The notes under the pieces were generated by a model. The model saw only the letters and a list, made by a program, of their open reading frames with translations, had not been told where the DNA came from and ran no database searches. Shown one piece after another: positions 1-45,553 of a stretch of 45,596 nt of DNA (position 1 is the stretch's first letter; each line of letters begins with the position of its first letter). This stretch comes from a virus (taxonomy: Duplodnaviria; Heunggongvirae; Uroviricota; Caudoviricetes), in the IMG/VR virus record IMGVR_UViG_2778261121_000003, positions 1 to 45,596 of that record; one strand, 5' to 3'. The translations under genes were made by a program, and so were the position numbers.

Positions 1-124
1 ATGTAGCTTTTTGTTTTTCGCAATTGTCGGTTTTTTTTATTAAATTTAGTTTTTTATTAGAGGCTATTTTCTCTGTTTCTTCTCTAACTTCTTTTATCGT
101 CATGTAAGTTTCTTTTGTCATTAT
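1..124 (-). CDS. partial hypothetical protein (N-terminal part only; runs off the left edge of the window)
   Basis: Reverse-strand reading frame open from an ATG near 101-124 to the window edge (translation MTIKEVREETEKIASNKKLNLIKK...); very AT-rich; no convincing SD; not in the supplied ORF track because truncated. Confidence 0.25.
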   Translation of the reverse strand, partial: MMTKETYMTIKEVREETEKIASNKKLNLIKKTDNCEKQKAT

Positions 125-268
125 AATTCGACCTACTGGAATATCTTGATTTAAGAGGCTACAAATATAGTTCAGCCAATCAAGAAATTTTTTCAGCCGG
201 AGGTTTGTACTTCAAAAAATGTGATGAATGTCACATGCAGGTGCTCTCATACACCTGCATGTAGACTA

Positions 269-835
269 TTAATCATTCAATAATCTATATTTTCTTTTGA
301 TTAAATCTTCACCTTTTTTGGTGAACACAAAACCAAATTGCGATTTTTTGTTCAGCCGAAGGACTCTGTTATCCAACGCATCTGTTGATGGAATCAATGT
401 TTGATCATCTATCCAATTAAGCAGCGTAAGAAAGTTCAGCAGCCTCAACGTTGTTGTGCGAAGCTCTTTCGATATATTTTCAATGCTGGCAATTCGTCTT
501 TCTTTTTTCTCAGGTGGCACAGATAATTGTTCTTGAGATTTCGTGGATAGATAATCAATTTCGTTTGCTGCATCGAATGATATGTGAGGCGTAATTTTGC
601 TAAAAAAGCCTTTCGCTGACTCACTTGATAATAAACCAGACCTATTCATATCGTTTGTTATTCTGTACAGGAGTGGACTGTGTTTCATTTCAGGATAACG
701 TTGATAAAAGTTAAGCAATTCAAAAGCAGCATTAGCACCAACAAGAAAATCAGAAGGATCGCTGACTTTCCAGAAAGAATGATTTTTCTTAGCGCCAGTG
801 GTGTCAACAAATGATAATTCTTTTAACCAACTCAT
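269..835 (-). CDS. hypothetical protein (AT-rich accessory gene)
   Basis: ORF 269..868 in the track; preferred start is the internal ATG at 835 (MSWLKELSF...), which has an AAGGAG SD 6 nt upstream on the minus strand; no recognisable motifs. Confidence 0.6.
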   Translation of the reverse strand: MSWLKELSFVDTTGAKKNHSFWKVSDPSDFLVGANAAFELLNFYQRYPEMKHSPLLYRITNDMNRSGLLSSESAKGFFSKITPHISFDAANEIDYLSTKSQEQLSVPPEKKERRIASIENISKELRTTTLRLLNFLTLLNWIDDQTLIPSTDALDNRVLRLNKKSQFGFVFTKKGEDLIKRKYRLLND

Positions 836-900
836 GATGTGCTCCTTTCTAACAAGTGAGCACATCATAGAATTAGTAGATAGGGGGTAAATATGAAATG

Positions 901-1179
901 TTACGGCAACCTGCTCAGTATTTCCTCTAGATCTTTTTTTGTCATATTGGAGTTTTCATAGATGCGCATGATTTTCTCACGCGTCTTAGCGGAAACCCCA
1001 ACGGCAGATGTGACTTTGTCAAATTCAGCCATAGTCATCGTCTCTAGAATGGCATTGATAACTTCAGCCTTAGACATCTTGATTTTTTTCTCTTTGAGTT
1101 TTATTTGGAATTTTCCAAGTTTTTCATTGGCCTTATCAGACAATGCCACTTGGCAATAAGTTGTTTTCTTTTCGCTCAT
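901..1179 (-). CDS. hypothetical small Lys-rich protein
   Basis: 92-aa ORF co-directional with and immediately downstream of the helicase gene; no recognisable motifs. Confidence 0.5.
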   Translation of the reverse strand: MSEKKTTYCQVALSDKANEKLGKFQIKLKEKKIKMSKAEVINAILETMTMAEFDKVTSAVGVSAKTREKIMRIYENSNMTKKDLEEILSRLP

Positions 1180-1181
1180 AA

Positions 1182-2741
1182 CTAATCTCGTTTCAGAACT
1201 CCAAAATCGAATGCGCCATCAATTGGCAATACACCTTCTGCAAAGCCAGGTGTAGTGTCGATGATGTGTTTTCGCTCATAAGAGTGAGACAACAGGTATT
1301 TGTTGCTAATGTCAATGAAATCAGTGATAAAACACACGTTTGCCTGATTCTTCTTGGCTCGTAAGCCACGACCGACACGTTGTCTCATTTCAACTTCTGC
1401 TTTCCCGCCACCAGCAAGAATGACCGCACCAACGCTTGGCACATCAACACCGACATCCAGAATAGTCGAGCCTATTAAAACATCTATTTCACCAGACGCT
1501 AAACTGTTCAGCTTTGCTTGCCTTGTCGCCTGGTTCGATTCCCCATAGATGAAGTCAACTCTAAGACCGGACTCCTTCATCATCTCCATCAGGATTTGCC
1601 CGTGGCGTTTAAGACGAACCAGAGTCATGCAGTTGAGAGAGTGTTGCTTATAGAGCAATGCTTCGCGCACAATGGCCTCGTTACGTCCCAAATTATACAC
1701 GATCCCCAACTGATAAGCCTTTTGGTAGGCAGTGCTCATACCTACTCTAAAATTGAGGTGTTTGTTAGCAAGTTCTGCCTTGATTCTGACCTCGTCCGGT
1801 TTGTAGGCAACTTTATGATAAAGGAAGTATGGCTTTGCCAGAATGCCTCTATCAATCAGGTACTTTTCCGTGACTTTTATTTCAATTCGCCCGGCTACAG
1901 CCATCAGACGCATGTTGGCTTCCGTAGAATCCTTCATGAACGGCGTTGCCGTAAGCGCCAGGCGATAGTCTGCGTTCGCACATAATCTGGCAATGTCATA
2001 GAAATTAGAGCCTGAAGACTCATGCGCCTCTTCCAGAATAAGAAGAGAGACACTTGAAAGGAAGCGTTTCACCAACTCCCGACGTTTGAGGTGGTAGCTT
2101 TTCTTATCTGGAGTTGCATCGCGTGGTGGTTCTTCAAGGAAACTTGCAAGAGTTTGAACTGTAGCGACGTTGATATGTCGTGATACCTGGAACTCACCCG
2201 AGCCAATTACTCCAACCTTTTGGTCTTTTAACCACGGTTCGCCATTTTCGGCGCGGTAGTCGATGGATCTCTGGAAGTTTTCGGCCATCTGAAACATCAG
2301 AACAGAGCGGGTTGTTAAAAATAATGTCATTCGACCGATACGTGCAGCTGCTTTGCAGGCAACATTAGATTTCCCGCCACCAGTAGCGATCTGCGCAATC
2401 ATCATTCCCTCTCGAACCAGTGTTTCCACAGTCTGATCCTGATACGCATAATCAGGATTGTATGGGAATGGGTTAACCGCCGGATTTGGTTTACCAAGCG
2501 CCGGGGCTTTGTCTTTGCGGATATGAACACATTTGATGCCCGCCTTGTTCAAGTTCGCCGCTACAGGCTTGGCAAAGCCAGCAGGGAACGAGTTTTTACT
2601 CCAGTTGAACATCGTGCTTGTGCCCTTCCAGTCGCCAGTCTCGACTTCGTAGCTCAACATTTGCTGCACCAGTTGCTTTACCTTGTCATCTGCGCCAGAA
2701 ATAAGCGCATTTACTGCGTTAGATACAATCCGAACAGTCAT
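1182..2741 (-). CDS. superfamily-2 (DEAD/DEAH-like) DNA/RNA helicase
   Basis: 519-aa ORF; Walker A-like ATGGGKS, motif II-like LILEEAHE, motif VI-like QRVGRGLR visible in the translation. Confidence 0.85.
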   Translation of the reverse strand: MTVRIVSNAVNALISGADDKVKQLVQQMLSYEVETGDWKGTSTMFNWSKNSFPAGFAKPVAANLNKAGIKCVHIRKDKAPALGKPNPAVNPFPYNPDYAYQDQTVETLVREGMMIAQIATGGGKSNVACKAAARIGRMTLFLTTRSVLMFQMAENFQRSIDYRAENGEPWLKDQKVGVIGSGEFQVSRHINVATVQTLASFLEEPPRDATPDKKSYHLKRRELVKRFLSSVSLLILEEAHESSGSNFYDIARLCANADYRLALTATPFMKDSTEANMRLMAVAGRIEIKVTEKYLIDRGILAKPYFLYHKVAYKPDEVRIKAELANKHLNFRVGMSTAYQKAYQLGIVYNLGRNEAIVREALLYKQHSLNCMTLVRLKRHGQILMEMMKESGLRVDFIYGESNQATRQAKLNSLASGEIDVLIGSTILDVGVDVPSVGAVILAGGGKAEVEMRQRVGRGLRAKKNQANVCFITDFIDISNKYLLSHSYERKHIIDTTPGFAEGVLPIDGAFDFGVLKRD

Positions 2742-2785
2742 AAACCTCTTTCCTTAGTGCCTTTTGTATGTTATTTGGCTATTAT

Positions 2786-2807
2786 AATAAGTAAGTAATT
2801 ACTTAGT
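2786..2807 (+). promoter_or_regulatory. conserved intergenic motif (ATAAGTAAGTAATTACTTAG), putative phage promoter/operator
   Basis: Member of the GATAAGTAAGTA-type motif family found about 14 times in intergenic DNA, always in + orientation; here in the divergent region between the helicase and ParB-like genes. Confidence 0.4.
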
Positions 2808-2823
2808 AGATTGTAGCAATAAA

Positions 2824-3504
2824 ATGGATGTAAAAATCACGATTTTGCAGGTTGATGTTGCCAACCTTCGCCCGAATACCTGGAACACCAATTCGGTTGG
2901 TGCGCAGAATTTTGAAAAACTGAAAGGTTCTATCGAAAAATTGGGCTTTTTTAAGCCAATTTTGGCTCGTGAACTTGAAGATGGATTTTTTGAAATCCTC
3001 GGCGGCGAACATCGCTGGCGTGCTGCTATTGAGCAAGGAATTTCAACGGTTCCGGTGCTTTCTGTGGGCAAAATTAGCGATGTCGTAGCTAAACAGATGT
3101 CACTGGTGGACAACGAGCGATACGGTGAAGACGACCAAATCGCATTGCAACGCTTCATTGAAGAAATTCAGTCAGAACTTGACTATCAACTGTCTGAAAT
3201 CGCCCCGTATGACGACGAAATCTCGATGGTTTTAGCAAAAGAGGCGGCAATCGACCTTGAAGCACTGGAGGCGTTGTCTCGTGGTAGTGATGAGCCTGTC
3301 GATACCGACAAACGAGAGAAAACCGAACGTGTGGGGGCGGAACATCAGACCATGCGCTTCAAAGTAACTTTCGATGCGTCAGATCGTGTTGCAGAAACCA
3401 TAAAAAACATCATCAAAGAGCAGGCTATTAACACCGGTAATGAAATGGAGAACGCTGGTGAGGCTCTGGTGTGGCTGGTCGACTACTACAAGGAGCGTAT
3501 GTAA
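2824..3504 (+). CDS. ParB N-terminal domain (ParB/Srx-like) protein, paralog 1
   Basis: 226 aa; ParB-box-like GGEHRWRAAIEQG followed by a hydrophobic stretch, typical of the ParB/sulfiredoxin N-domain. Confidence 0.8.
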   Translation: MDVKITILQVDVANLRPNTWNTNSVGAQNFEKLKGSIEKLGFFKPILARELEDGFFEILGGEHRWRAAIEQGISTVPVLSVGKISDVVAKQMSLVDNERYGEDDQIALQRFIEEIQSELDYQLSEIAPYDDEISMVLAKEAAIDLEALEALSRGSDEPVDTDKREKTERVGAEHQTMRFKVTFDASDRVAETIKNIIKEQAINTGNEMENAGEALVWLVDYYKERM

Positions 3505-5730: not shown

Positions 5731-5997
5731 ATGACGTTAACCGACAAACAAAAGGACATCATCAAAACGCTCAATCTCGGTTATGAGCGAGGTCATCTAC
5801 TTGATCTGGACGAATTGCTTGAAGTTTTGCCGTACAAGACAACAAAGCAAAGTATCCAGTTCTCAATTCGCGCTCTGATAAAAAAGGGGCTGGTGGAGAA
5901 AGGGCATACGCGCCAACGCAGTGACAATCGCTATCACCGCCGGACTCTTGGGTTAACCACTTTAGGTCGAGCCAAAGCGAAGTTACTGGTGATGTAA
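5731..5997 (+). CDS. small putative DNA-binding (winged-helix-like) protein
   Basis: 88-aa basic protein at the end of the ParB/ABC/GNAT operon; SD AAGGA upstream; HTH assignment is inference from size and charge pattern. Confidence 0.5.
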   Translation: MTLTDKQKDIIKTLNLGYERGHLLDLDELLEVLPYKTTKQSIQFSIRALIKKGLVEKGHTRQRSDNRYHRRTLGLTTLGRAKAKLLVM

Positions 5998-6021
5998 TCG
6001 GTCTGGGACGTTATTTAAAGA

Positions 6022-6076
6022 CCTGCTTCTGTATATATAAATAATAAGTAACTTATTAAATATATACGGAAGCAGG
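6022..6076. repeat. 55-bp AT-core palindrome, copy 1
   Basis: CCTGCTTCTGTATATATAAATAATAAGTAACTTATTAAATATATACGGAAGCAGG; near-perfect dyad symmetry; a near-identical copy lies at 36151-36205; flanked by outer inverted GGTCTGGG/CCCAGACC. Confidence 0.8.
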
Positions 6077-6193
6077 CTTAGTAAGACATGCCCAGACCTA
6101 ATTAGACACACCAGAAAACAAGTTGGTTAGCAGATGCAGTAAACAAGTTGTTTTAGAGCGCATGGACGCGCTCTGTGTGTTTTAGAGGGATCT

Positions 6194-11569: not shown

Positions 11570-12490
11570 ATGCCAGAACAAAAGATGAAGATTACGGAAG
11601 AGGCATTTTCGGATTTTACGGGGCATATGTGCCGTGCCGGATTTACCAATTCTATCTCCAACGAACCTTTAACCGATCGACAGCAGAGTCAGCTATCTGC
11701 TTGTTTACAGGCGATTCCTTTCTTCCAAACCGTAAATATCACCCCGGTATCGCCGTCAATTATGGTTGGGGAAACGGTTCAATTAAGTGCAGGTATCACA
11801 ATGAGCAAGAGTGTTAGTTCGTTTACTTGGGAATCAGACAATGATCGAATTGCAACAGTAAACGACAGTGGGCTGGTGACAGGTGTGAATCCAGGGAAAG
11901 TAAATATTACTGCCACCGATCGGGAAACCCAGCTTTCAGCATCAGTGGAAGTTACGGTGAACCCAATTGCCGTTCAATCCGTAACTTTAACGCCGAACTC
12001 AACGAGTGTTGAGAAGGGTAATACGGTCAATCTGACAGCAAATATTCAACCGTCTAATGCGACTAATAAGGCAGTTACATGGACTTCCAAAAATGAGGAC
12101 AAGGCAACGGTAGACCAGAGTGGAAACGTTACTGGTGTTGAGGTTGGGACTGCCATAATCGAGGTTACTACAGAAGATGGCGGCAAAAAGGCAACCGCAA
12201 CGGTGGAAGTAACATCGCCTGTTGTGTCTGTTACTGGTGTCGAGATTGAACCAAGCAGCACGACAGTTGAAGAAAACAGCACTGTTCAGTTGACCGCAAA
12301 TGTAGAACCGGCAGGAGCCACAAATAAAACCGTTACTTGGGAATCCAAAAATACCGAGTTTGCAACGGTGGACAGCGAAACCGGTGTTGTAACTGGTGTT
12401 GCGGCTGGCACTGCCACAATCGAGGTTACTACCCAAGATGGTAGCCACAAAGCGACAGCTACTGTAGAAGTTACTGCCGCACAGGAATAA
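11570..12490 (+). CDS. Ig-like (BIG2-type) repeat protein, possible head decoration/surface protein
   Basis: 306 aa with three tandem ~85-aa repeats (pattern V..V.L.P....V..G.TV.LTA...P..ATNK.VTW.S.....ATVD..G.VTGV..GTA.I.VTT.DG...A...V.V); SD AGGAG. Confidence 0.75.
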   Translation: MPEQKMKITEEAFSDFTGHMCRAGFTNSISNEPLTDRQQSQLSACLQAIPFFQTVNITPVSPSIMVGETVQLSAGITMSKSVSSFTWESDNDRIATVNDSGLVTGVNPGKVNITATDRETQLSASVEVTVNPIAVQSVTLTPNSTSVEKGNTVNLTANIQPSNATNKAVTWTSKNEDKATVDQSGNVTGVEVGTAIIEVTTEDGGKKATATVEVTSPVVSVTGVEIEPSSTTVEENSTVQLTANVEPAGATNKTVTWESKNTEFATVDSETGVVTGVAAGTATIEVTTQDGSHKATATVEVTAAQE

Positions 12491-12495
12491 TCAAT

Positions 12496-12519
12496 ATTGG
12501 GCGGCTTTCGCCGCCCAAT
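12496..12519 (+). terminator. strong hairpin (terminator-like, no T-tract)
   Basis: ATTGGGCGGC-tttc-GCCGCCCAAT, 10-bp perfect stem directly after the stop of the Ig-like protein gene. Confidence 0.4.
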
Positions 12520-12535
12520 ATAGAGAGAAAGCGTT

Positions 12536-36120: not shown

Positions 36121-36150
36121 CAACTACCGGTCTGGCAGCTTCAATCAGAA

Positions 36151-36205
36151 CCTGTTTCTGTATATAAATAATAAGTAACTTATTAAATATATATACGGAA
36201 GCAGG
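36151..36205. repeat. 55-bp AT-core palindrome, copy 2
   Basis: CCTGTTTCTGTATATAAATAATAAGTAACTTATTAAATATATATACGGAAGCAGG; near-identical to 6022-6076, with the TA-repeat count shifted between arms; 30 bp downstream of the ParA/RHH cassette. Confidence 0.8.
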
Positions 36206-36287
36206 TCTTTTAAAAGACACCCACCAGAACAACTCCCTTCCGTTTCCACTTCCAAAAACTGACACCAGTCGCTATCATCCGCTCATT

Positions 36288-43268: not shown

Positions 43269-44012
43269 TTTTGTGTATAAGATGACTTTGTTTTCGTTGA
43301 GACGCGACTGTTTGAACTTAAATACAAGTGCAAACGAAGAAGTCTATCTGGCAGTAGCCTAATAAGCCAAACACCAGCGAGGTCAGTTTCCAGCCTCGTT
43401 ACCGAAATGGGACACACTGAGCGAGTGTGATTGCAGAACGCAGGAGGGAACATGAGTGTTCCCTCCGATGAAGTAACGGAATGGGCGGTCGGTATATTTT
43501 CAACTCCATATGACTCTCGGATTCTTAGCCACTGACCGCCCATCCTGTTACGTCATTTTGTTCAATTATGTCGTTTATACTGGGTTAAAAGCGGCGACGT
43601 AGCCCGGCTGGTATGGTTAGCCAGCACACAACGTTGAGGCCATTACATTTTTATCAATTCTAAGGTTCTATTCACAGAGATACCGGCGAGCGTTGATATG
43701 TAACATGTTGGGCAAACATTCAATCGGAGTAGTGGCCTCAACGTTGTGAAGACAGGATTGTTGTGTAGGTTTAACCACTGTTGCCATTGGTGCCTGTTTT
43801 CACAACAAATGATTCCATACATCATATTGTATAAATTACAAAGTAGGTGCTGTCCTCAGAAACATCATCTACTTAAAGATTTAGCCTTCTATTGAGCGAA
43901 GTCGAAAGCGTCTGGCACTAACGTAAAGTGCAAGTAGCAGTGCGTTTCCTGGCAGAAACTAACACCGCCGCGATTGGCACTGTTGAGTAATAAATACTGG
44001 CTGTGCCGAATT

Positions 44013-44838: not shown

Positions 44839-44993
44839 AGACACAGCGTTGAGCGGTTTGGCCTTTTAATCACCCAGATTAAGACTCCGCTAACATAAAC
44901 CAGACCGCTCAACGCTGTGATAGACAATTACGTCAGACTTTCTTAACCATAGCTTGATAACATCCTAGCAACACTTTTTTCATCGCAAAATTC

Positions 44994-45031: not shown

Positions 45032-45553
45032 TTACTTTGCATAGTCGCTTAGTTTTAATATTTCGCGCTTATATTCCTTAACCATGTCACGAGACTCAAT
45101 GTGAATTCGATGTAAAATTTTATCGTTATCTTTATTCTCATTTATCTTAATGAGTGCTAATTTATATTCATAATCATCAAATGCATCAATCAATTTGCGA
45201 CCGGGAATTGTTTCTTCGTCACTCTTAAAGTATATATCTTCAAGCCTGTAATCTAGTTGATTAGATTTTCTTTTCTCGATGTAATCTACTGCCATAGCTA
45301 TTACATCGTTCCTGTCATTTAACCTGGTTTTTTCGGAAGGCACATCTTCGTAACGTTGTACAATTGAACAACCAATAAGGGATGGGATGTAAACATCAAA
45401 ACAAGTAACTCTATCATGCGCATTTTTAAGTTCTTTCTCAAAGTAGTTTCTAACATGCAAAGGCAACTTATCAAAGTAATCATCAATTATAGGAGAACAA
45501 GGAGTTTTATAATTCATAAGAATTGACGGTACGAGCTTTGGATGTCGGAACAT
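45032..45553 (-). CDS. hypothetical protein (AT-rich accessory gene)
   Basis: 173-aa ORF on the opposite strand to the surrounding genes, visibly AT-rich, AAGGAG upstream of the ATG; no recognisable motifs. Confidence 0.6.
   Translation of the reverse strand: MFRHPKLVPSILMNYKTPCSPIIDDYFDKLPLHVRNYFEKELKNAHDRVTCFDVYIPSLIGCSIVQRYEDVPSEKTRLNDRNDVIAMAVDYIEKRKSNQLDYRLEDIYFKSDEETIPGRKLIDAFDDYEYKLALIKINENKDNDKILHRIHIESRDMVKEYKREILKLSDYAK

Follow-up and report, generated by a model that had tools for sequence, protein, structure and literature searches.

In a 45,596-nucleotide (nt) stretch of viral DNA (positions 1 to 45,596 of the IMG/VR record IMGVR_UViG_2778261121_000003, Caudoviricetes; hereafter the window), the translation start of an orphan gene near the left edge, which we call gpA, is predicted to be buried in a messenger RNA (mRNA) hairpin, and on balance we favor the reading that this hairpin occludes translation of gpA on transcripts reading through from upstream, possibly with a weak internal promoter serving as a bypass. 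The gene follows gpB at the 3' end of a minus-strand operon that begins with a UvsW-type helicase gene; this 3' end makes up the left 1.2 kb of the window, and the operon lies opposite a divergent ParB-ParB-ABC ATPase operon (Table 1). Bases 1-3000 are 97-98% identical to Escherichia phage Cyrano (the phage-plasmid pLF82), PhiR41_1 and CMS-2020a and 79.5% identical to Salmonella phage SSU5, and the first 1250 bases match 189 plasmids in PLSDB, nearly all of them from Escherichia or Shigella and non-mobilizable. On the basis of these phage and plasmid matches, the element is an SSU5-supergroup (SSU5-type) E. coli phage-plasmid of the Cyrano/pLF82 lineage. Clinical E. coli, Shigella, Salmonella and Klebsiella commonly carry phage-plasmids of this type (pLF82/Cyrano, pHCM2 and their kin), the majority of whose genes have yet to be characterised.

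The original prediction, made from the letters of this DNA, had pointed out a perfect 11-bp inverted repeat across the Shine-Dalgarno (SD) sequence and start codon of gpA, and the repeat is located exactly there, with arms ATGATGTGCTC (834-844) and GAGCACATCAT (858-868) and a spacer of 13 nt. Read on the mRNA strand as AUGAUGUGCUC-ACUUGUUAGAAAG-GAGCACAUCAU-G, it has in its 3' arm the GAG of the SD sequence AAGGAG (842-847) together with the AU of the AUG start codon (833-835); an inner 3-bp helix (CUU/AAG) pairs the remainder of the SD sequence and an outer 8-bp helix extends the stem to codons 1-4 of gpA. The complete hairpin (~22 bp) folds at -29 kcal/mol, with z = -7.3 for the 71-nt RNA compared to dinucleotide shuffles, and in a GC-corrected scan for minimum free energy (MFE) with 71-nt windows on both strands it took rank 8 of 18,212, as the 4th distinct locus. 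At 37 C the SD sequence and the AUG were unpaired with probabilities of 0.01 and 0.02, respectively (98-99% pairing across the ensemble), and for the SD sequence this probability moved from 0.004 at 25 C over 0.011 at 37 C and 0.016 at 42 C to 0.032 at 50 C. An RNA thermometer was ruled out on the basis that the SD sequence is still closed at 50 C, and Rfam yielded no match for the hairpin at expectation (E) values up to 1.

Comparison with homologous loci revealed that the hairpin is maintained while its surroundings change. First, the 35-nt element is conserved at 34 of 35 positions in homologues whose gpA is 78-79% identical at a synonymous divergence (dS) of ~1, the sole change lying in the loop and the flanks having diverged. 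Similarly, the first 30 nt of the gpA coding sequence, which form the outer stem, carry one change versus about six per 30 nt elsewhere. Second, close relatives show two two-sided and five one-sided, G-U-type pair changes that keep the structure, including a GAGCAC to GAGTAC change in relative L006 that keeps the RNA pairing and breaks the DNA palindrome. Third, hairpins with different arm sequences precede the gpA homologues of three other lineages: in L015/L024 the stem is 13 bp long, with a G:C pair turned into C:G in the Klebsiella homologue L015; L010, L012 and L013 have an unrelated 11-13-bp stem (ATTCACTCCGT/ACGGAGTGAAT; z -8 to -8.9) in which the SD sequence again makes up the 3' arm; and in L016/L025 a weaker structure of two helices engages the SD sequence as well as the AUG. 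Conversely, where gpA is deleted (plasmid pLR-48_2), the hairpin decays, with two changes in the 5' arm. By a rough estimate of our own (4^-11 x ~45,600 positions x ~58 loop lengths), chance alone should produce ~0.6 perfect inverted repeats of 11 bp with spacers of up to 60 nt in 45.6 kb, and several others do occur in the window, as would suit a chance palindrome in AT-rich DNA that is devoid of function. Such an origin is nonetheless vanishingly unlikely given the z score, and it is effectively refuted by the near-perfect conservation at dS ~1, along with the hairpins that three other lineages independently have at this site and the decay after gpA loss.

Regulation at the gpA start by RNA structure or by an operator had both been suggested, and regulation is supported here, with the RNA structure better supported than the operator by fold and conservation. 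If the repeat were a DNA operator, a dimeric regulator (gpB, gpA or another phage protein) would repress an overlapping gpA promoter and the hairpin would be incidental. We deem this rather unlikely, even though the perfect 11-bp palindromic pair overlaps a promoter-like -10 element, the arm sequences change between lineages in step with gpB and gpA, both highly diverged proteins, and gpA RNA is at background in lysogens. The repeat occurs in one copy genome-wide instead of as an operator set: no second copy was found in the window or in Cyrano 35-108 kb, i.e. it is unique in the ~108-kb genome, and the full 11-nt arm, allowing up to two mismatches, recurs across the window at chance frequency only. 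An operator regulon was ruled out on these grounds. The arms are spaced 24 bp centre to centre, which is unusual for ribbon-helix-helix or helix-turn-helix dimers and counts against an operator. Moreover, several of the natural G-U-type variants break the palindrome and keep RNA pairing, G-U pairs carry the helix on into the coding region, the SD sequence is invariably where the 3' arm falls, which an operator does not need, and some lineages have a weak promoter or none.

In the mechanism that we favor, transcription from the helicase promoter would run through gpB, a gene expressed in the plasmid-prophage state, into gpA. Because the 3' arm of the ~22-bp stem-loop between the two genes holds the SD sequence and start codon of gpA, along with its first codons, ribosomes would be unable to initiate gpA on such read-through transcripts, and the untranslated gpA RNA would then be prone to Rho-dependent termination and decay. 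Synthesis of gpA would be confined to RNAs that lack the 5' arm or to conditions in which the stem is otherwise opened, a candidate source of the short RNA being a weak promoter whose -10 element overlaps the 5' arm, with a logic as in T4 e, soc and I-TevI. A second hairpin with a T-run would end the gpA unit, and exchangeable cargo, here a probable HNH nuclease, would come next. We infer from these features that the hairpin blocks gpA translation in vivo.

Published RNA-seq data for LF82/Cyrano in lysogeny broth (LB) give 46 fragments per kilobase per million (fpkm) for the helicase gene, 114 for gpB and 9 for gpA, the last value being about in the range of the silent structural genes in the same sheet, and gpA RNA is 8-30 times (3-5 log2 units) below gpB RNA in all five conditions (PMC9928086 S1 Table). 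Low gpA RNA fits an untranslated segment prone to polarity and decay. The 12-fold drop from gpB to gpA RNA, together with gpB RNA exceeding that of the helicase gene (PMC9928086 S1 Table), would also be expected if the hairpin served mainly as the 3' end of the helicase-gpB transcript (a terminator, attenuator or barrier to 3'-exonucleases) and the overlap with the gpA start were secondary; the hairpin begins 24 nt past the gpB stop codon, and a separate terminator-like hairpin follows the gpB homologue in L009 and L016. We assign this 3'-end role a small chance of being the principal one: the stem has no U-run after it (the tail being GAGUUGGUUAAAAG in the window and ACAAUGAAAAAUGC in L010) and a terminator scan gave no call at 826-877, the position is tied to the SD sequence and AUG of gpA in every lineage, and the element degrades after gpA deletion though gpB stays. 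Both an operator and a 3'-end role could coexist with translational occlusion.

The candidate for the bypass is a sigma-70-like promoter (Table 1) whose -10 element overlaps the outer end of the 5' arm. Its predicted start at ~857 would yield an RNA without the 5' arm of the hairpin, in which the probability of an unpaired SD sequence is 0.52 versus 0.01 in the read-through RNA, i.e. ~50 times more accessible. L005 and L006 carry this motif too, and a comparable one (TTTTCA-16-TAATAT/TAGTAT) abuts the unrelated hairpin of L012-L014. From these motifs we infer that an internal promoter may bypass the hairpin.

Several points weigh against occlusion with a bypass. On the transcript side, the step-down in the RNA-seq data could equally come from termination or processing at the hairpin. 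As to the promoter, the candidate is weak (9/12 matches to the consensus), its motif is absent in L004 and L015, and the best candidate in L016 sits upstream of the entire hairpin. As to the hairpin itself, the Providencia locus L009 has no significant one (z -1.45), the arms are nearly invariant within lineages so that covariation statistics are thin (RNAalifold covariation term -0.05), and the alignment of hairpins between lineages is positional and not by sequence. Finally, any change that keeps the inverted repeat also keeps a DNA palindrome.

The gene downstream of the hairpin is real and under purifying selection because its ratio of nonsynonymous to synonymous divergence (dN/dS) is ~0.1 at dS ~1. 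Its true start is the ATG at 835 (188 residues) because relatives carry +1 and +4 nt indels between the 3' arm and the ATG; a 199-residue reading from an ATG at 868 was ruled out, as these indels shift the upstream ATG out of frame, although Cyrano is annotated from the upstream ATG with 199 residues. The protein matches phrog_13473 over its full length (E 2.5e-131), a PHROGs family of unknown function, and had no match in Pfam or NCBIfam and a negligible one to SspC in PADLOC (E 0.0036, 13 bits), with none there for gpB and four remote gpA homologues. No DNA-binding Pfam domain was found in gpA or gpB, and the idea, formed by eye, that the C-terminal region of gpA is a KilA-C/ANT-like domain was dropped for want of a Pfam match in all nine family members searched. 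The AF2 model of gpA was unusable (predicted local distance difference test, pLDDT, 41), and sequence searches of the PDB with gpB and gpA profiles returned designed repeat proteins or noise only.

The gpA family is small, comprising 10 clusters among 5.8 billion proteins, and an exhaustive profile search found 11 matches among 1.84 billion representative proteins. The remote full-length members are P0028 (40% identity), P0032 (25%), P0033, P0035 and P0036 (20-24%) and P0034 from Providencia rettgeri. Homologues at 20-44% identity sit at the same genomic position as gpA in elements from Klebsiella and Providencia and in unassigned ones, two of the lineages being Klebsiella plasmids, and in every homologue contig that was read the gene order is helicase, gpB-like gene, gpA-like gene, variable genes and a FljA-like regulator. 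At the same time, gpA is missing from SSU5 and some Klebsiella phages, and in pLR-48_2 (L019) it is deleted with its two ends left. Within the closest relatives, the gpA/gpB locus DNA is 97.7% identical to Cyrano, and 79 of the 189 PLSDB plasmids span gpA (95-99% identity), versus 106 that match the gpB/helicase end only (80-90%). On this distribution, gpA is a positional orthologue that was kept with the backbone over deep divergence and is not cargo, yet is dispensable. We also observed repeated inactivation of gpA, in the form of frameshifted alleles of 114-129 residues on E. coli contigs (P0006-P0010) and of one clean internal deletion (L019 3900-4030); the latter keeps a hairpin remnant and the terminator, and gpB is always intact.

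The gene gpB is a backbone gene of SSU5-type phage-plasmids and not cargo, inasmuch as it is present behind the helicase gene in all SSU5-type relatives examined (Escherichia, Salmonella, Klebsiella and Providencia). It lies directly 3' of that gene in SSU5, Klebsiella phages and plasmids, Providencia and E. coli elements at 26-100% identity, and it is 100% identical to CYRAN_117 of Cyrano/pLF82. The protein matches phrog_1466 over its full length (E 1e-45), the only hit in searches of Pfam, NCBIfam, PADLOC and PHROGs and again a family of unknown function; its AF2 model (pLDDT 68) has five helices, and a fold search with this model gave no significant match. In LF82 lysogens, transcription of CYRAN_117 exceeds the prophage background 12-fold (PMC9928086, Table 1), and coverage of gpA and gpB in the literature consists of the listing of CYRAN_117 as a moron. 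As a separate observation, RNA of gpB (CYRAN_117) is 2-4 times as abundant as that of the helicase gene just upstream (CYRAN_118; PMC9928086 S1 Table), an excess that suggests either that the helicase gene has a promoter inside its 3' end or that the 3' segment is stabilised. Across five lineages of relatives, identities are 94/90/73/62/61% for the helicase, 78/44/30/24/27% for gpA and 70/52/31/28/26% for gpB, and gpA and gpB thus diverge in parallel and far faster than their neighbours.

Both genes had originally been grouped with the partial open reading frame (ORF) at the left edge as AT-rich, minus-strand accessory genes, and the compositional part of that description is borne out by a GC profile of the window: the GC content of bases 1-1179 is 35.6%, compared to 46.7 +/- 2.4% (standard deviation) over all 1179-nt windows, which makes this stretch the GC minimum at that length in the whole 45.6 kb. 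By part, GC is 25.8% in the partial ORF, 35.8% in gpA, 38.4% in gpB and 47.1% in the helicase gene, and all three ORFs (1-124, 269-835 and 901-1179) do lie on the minus strand as described, downstream of the helicase gene. Their supposed lack of recognisable motifs stands for gpA and gpB and not for the ORF at 1-124, probably the start of a protein with an HNH domain, the motif of which would fall past the window edge. The low GC is a long-standing, intrinsic property of gpA and gpB instead of a sign of recent import, because their homologues are AT-rich in nearly all lineages. At the right edge, an AT-rich ORF of 173 residues (45032-45553, minus strand) has the lowest GC of all called ORFs (33.1%, with 29% at third codon positions) and no Pfam match.

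What did not hold up is the treatment of the three ORFs as one class of accessory orphans, since gpB is backbone, gpA a positional orthologue and the left ORF probably HNH cargo. That all three were recently acquired, AT-rich accessory genes with anti-defence or host-takeover functions is in our view quite improbable. The low GC, the lack of known domains in gpA and gpB and their much faster divergence than the flanking genes speak for it, as does the fact that gpA is dispensable, tightly controlled and next to a cargo hotspot. Acquisition and such a function are not supported for gpB, given its presence behind the helicase in every SSU5-type relative examined and its expression in lysogens, and recent import is contradicted for gpA by synteny across genera and the low GC common to the homologues. 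For the left-edge ORF, a probable HNH nuclease in a slot that in one related lineage holds the candidate defence system PDC-M07, the anti-defence reading is probably to be inverted, i.e. to defence.

As to what gpA does, the retention and high transcription of gpB, set beside the frequent deletion or frameshifting and the tight repression of gpA, make a circumstantial case for a type II toxin-antitoxin pair with gpB as antitoxin, and the pair has no Pfam homology to such systems. Our guess is that gpA is a conditionally expressed factor that acts on nucleic acid or on a partner protein and is harmful or useless in the lysogen. A more elaborate scheme, to which we would give a slim chance, is that gpB and gpA form a co-diverging module on the UvsW-helicase operon in which gpB would be constitutive in the lysogen and gpA would be a conditionally translated effector, toxin-like or aimed at the host or a competitor, silenced by the hairpin and freed only by the internal promoter upon induction or entry into a new cell. 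If such a switch-controlled effector module were real, it would constitute a new effector family at the gate of a defence-cargo hotspot.

Table 1. Features at the left end of the window, from the operon's first gene to the left edge.
Feature	Position	Strand	Description
UvsW-type superfamily 2 (SF2) helicase	1182..2741	-	Heads the operon; matches ResIII, DEAD and Helicase_C in Pfam
gpB, 92 residues (phrog_1466)	901..1179	-	Lysine-rich, helical; start codon 2 nt past helicase stop
Weak sigma-70-like promoter candidate	864..891	-	-35 TTTACC (891-886), 16-nt spacer, -10 TATGAT (869-864)
mRNA stem-loop over gpA translation-initiation region	826..877	-	Core 11-bp repeat with 8-bp outer and 3-bp inner helix
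gpA, 188 residues (phrog_13473)	269..835	-	Two conserved regions with a variable linker between them
Terminator-like element ending the gpA unit	214..262	-	Perfect 11-bp hairpin 233-243/252-262, small second hairpin 221-234, T6 run 214-219 (mRNA strand)
Conserved junction block between gpA terminator and variable cargo	149..213	-	Megablast matches end here
Partial cargo ORF, first 41 codons, running off the left edge	1..124	-	Probable N-terminus of a ~326-residue HNH-endonuclease-domain protein

Past the gpA stop codon lies the 5th strongest local fold of the window after GC correction, a terminator-like element that a simple terminator scan misses because 13 nt, including a small second hairpin, separate its T-run from the main stem. 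In L004, three pairs of its stem are changed on both sides and still paired (GCAGGTG/CACCTGC to GTGGGCG/CGCCCAC). It is followed by a junction block that is kept in L004, L006, Cyrano, PhiR41_1 and L019 and beyond which the sequences differ, the megablast matches to phages and to the 189 plasmids beginning at window position 149, 156 or 159. A 12-nt inverted repeat (140-151/178-189, 92% complementary, 26-nt spacer) spans the junction block and the end of similarity and may mark a recombination joint or the promoter of the cargo gene.

The cargo ORF itself was identified through contig L006, which has its left flank in common with the window and encodes a 326-residue protein (L006:1266-2246) whose N-terminus is ~36/40 identical (counted by eye) to the translation of bases 1-124. 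This protein matches Pfam HNH PF01844 at 22.2 bits (cut-off 21.4) and weakly the PADLOC HNH and mREase_IV (type IV restriction) models; the HNH motif was read in the L006 homologue, the window holding the first 41 codons only. An E. coli plasmid (NZ_CP027369) carries a 56%-identical HNH gene of 377 residues in the same slot after gpA, and among relatives this slot holds nothing, two HNH nuclease variants, several unrelated pairs of unknown genes, or PDC-M07A/B, a pattern of occupancy that points to a cargo hotspot. In three metagenomic SSU5-type elements, the PADLOC candidate defence pair PDC-M07A (an AAA_15/AAA_21 ATPase, E 1e-208) and PDC-M07B (E 6e-72) lies on the opposite strand right after the gpA homologue (L012 2143-3926, L013 3684-5464, L014 1059-2479). 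In pLR-48_2, a 180-residue protein (L019 3266-3808) that replaces gpA's neighbour shares by eye a motif (YGFSFLFKNHLALKDF / LGYSFAFKNRLSIEMF) with the N-terminal half of the HNH protein (L006 1266-2246), and the same N-terminal domain may thus occur with and without a nuclease. On the far side of the slot, we noted a FljA-like protein (Pfam Flag1_repress PF03614) in L004 (7813-8337), L009 (8655-9173), L010 (8402-8929), L015 (8315-8836), L016 (8385-8966) and Cyrano (CYRAN_114); in Salmonella, FljA binds the mRNA of fliC and represses it post-transcriptionally.

Elsewhere in the window, overlapping AT-rich palindromes (2771-2805) lie inside the 82-nt divergent promoter region between the helicase gene and the first ParB gene and probably serve as regulatory sites or as sites related to ParB. 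After GC correction, the window's strongest fold is a near-perfect, AT-rich long hairpin of ~100 nt (5998-6100; DNA fold -24.4 kcal/mol, z -8.4) located between an 88-residue gene (5731-5997) and the next gene, at a position that matches the termini of the linear Cyrano record; a terminator, a packaging signal or a replication signal are possible roles. The lowest MFE of the window (-36 kcal/mol) belongs to a 15-bp inverted repeat at 12491-12524 (within 12451-12524), and further structured stretches are a 26-nt inverted repeat at 43468-43556, a 20-nt inverted repeat with 95% complementarity at 44842-44919 and an AT-rich stretch at ~36141-36216.

Among described systems, CYRAN_116/CYRAN_117 and phrog_13473/phrog_1466 are the same families as gpA/gpB, with no difference between them and no described function. 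The helicase is a full-length homologue of T4 UvsW (BLASTP: 21% identity across 500 residues, E 2e-16), and its Cyrano homologue is annotated as UvsW helicase. T4 reportedly carries UvsW and UvsW.1 as a gene pair, and likewise the UvsW-type helicase gene is here directly followed by one for a small, charged, all-helical protein. Unlike in T4, gpB has no detectable similarity to the UvsW.1 region (hhalign probability 0.1%), and with no UvsW.1 structure among the listed fold matches either, an identity of gpB with UvsW.1 was ruled out, the gene position alone fitting. The content of the slot after gpA varies among relatives, as it does in the defence and cargo hotspots known from phage-plasmids and prophages, with the difference that gpA stays with the backbone at the hotspot edge; the defence content of the SSU5 supergroup has been described (bioRxiv 10.1101/2025.09.12.675607).

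As to control of gpA, the pairing of SD sequence and AUG with an upstream anti-SD sequence and the low basal expression of a possibly harmful protein recall ROSE and fourU thermometers and the fold-back of hok mRNA. Unlike the thermometers, the stem has much too high a stability for melting at 42-50 C and has no Rfam match, and unlike in hok, neither an antisense RNA nor a processing site is apparent and gpA, with its 188 residues, is no small membrane toxin. There is a further likeness to T4 e (lysozyme), soc, 49 and I-TevI, which are said to have hairpins in their initiation regions with late promoters inside. Similarly, the stem-loop of gpA holds the SD sequence and AUG of a gene reached by read-through from the operon upstream, the location of a promoter-like element is such that a short transcript would lose the 5' arm and be translatable, and gpA is silent in one phase of the life cycle. 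By contrast with T4, the element is a temperate phage-plasmid, the candidate promoter is of the sigma-70 and not the T4 late type, is weak and is not found in all lineages, and the gpA product is unrelated. The control mechanism is of a known kind, acting on an uncharacterised and narrowly distributed gene family, and the locus offers a testable case of post-transcriptional gating in a plasmid-prophage, with one operon feeding both a lysogeny-expressed gpB and a locked-off gpA. If gpA is not a lytic-phase or establishment factor, the locus represents a well-documented but ordinary regulatory hairpin before an orphan gene; if it is such a factor, the hairpin and the internal promoter would extend the T4-style trick to temperate phage-plasmids.

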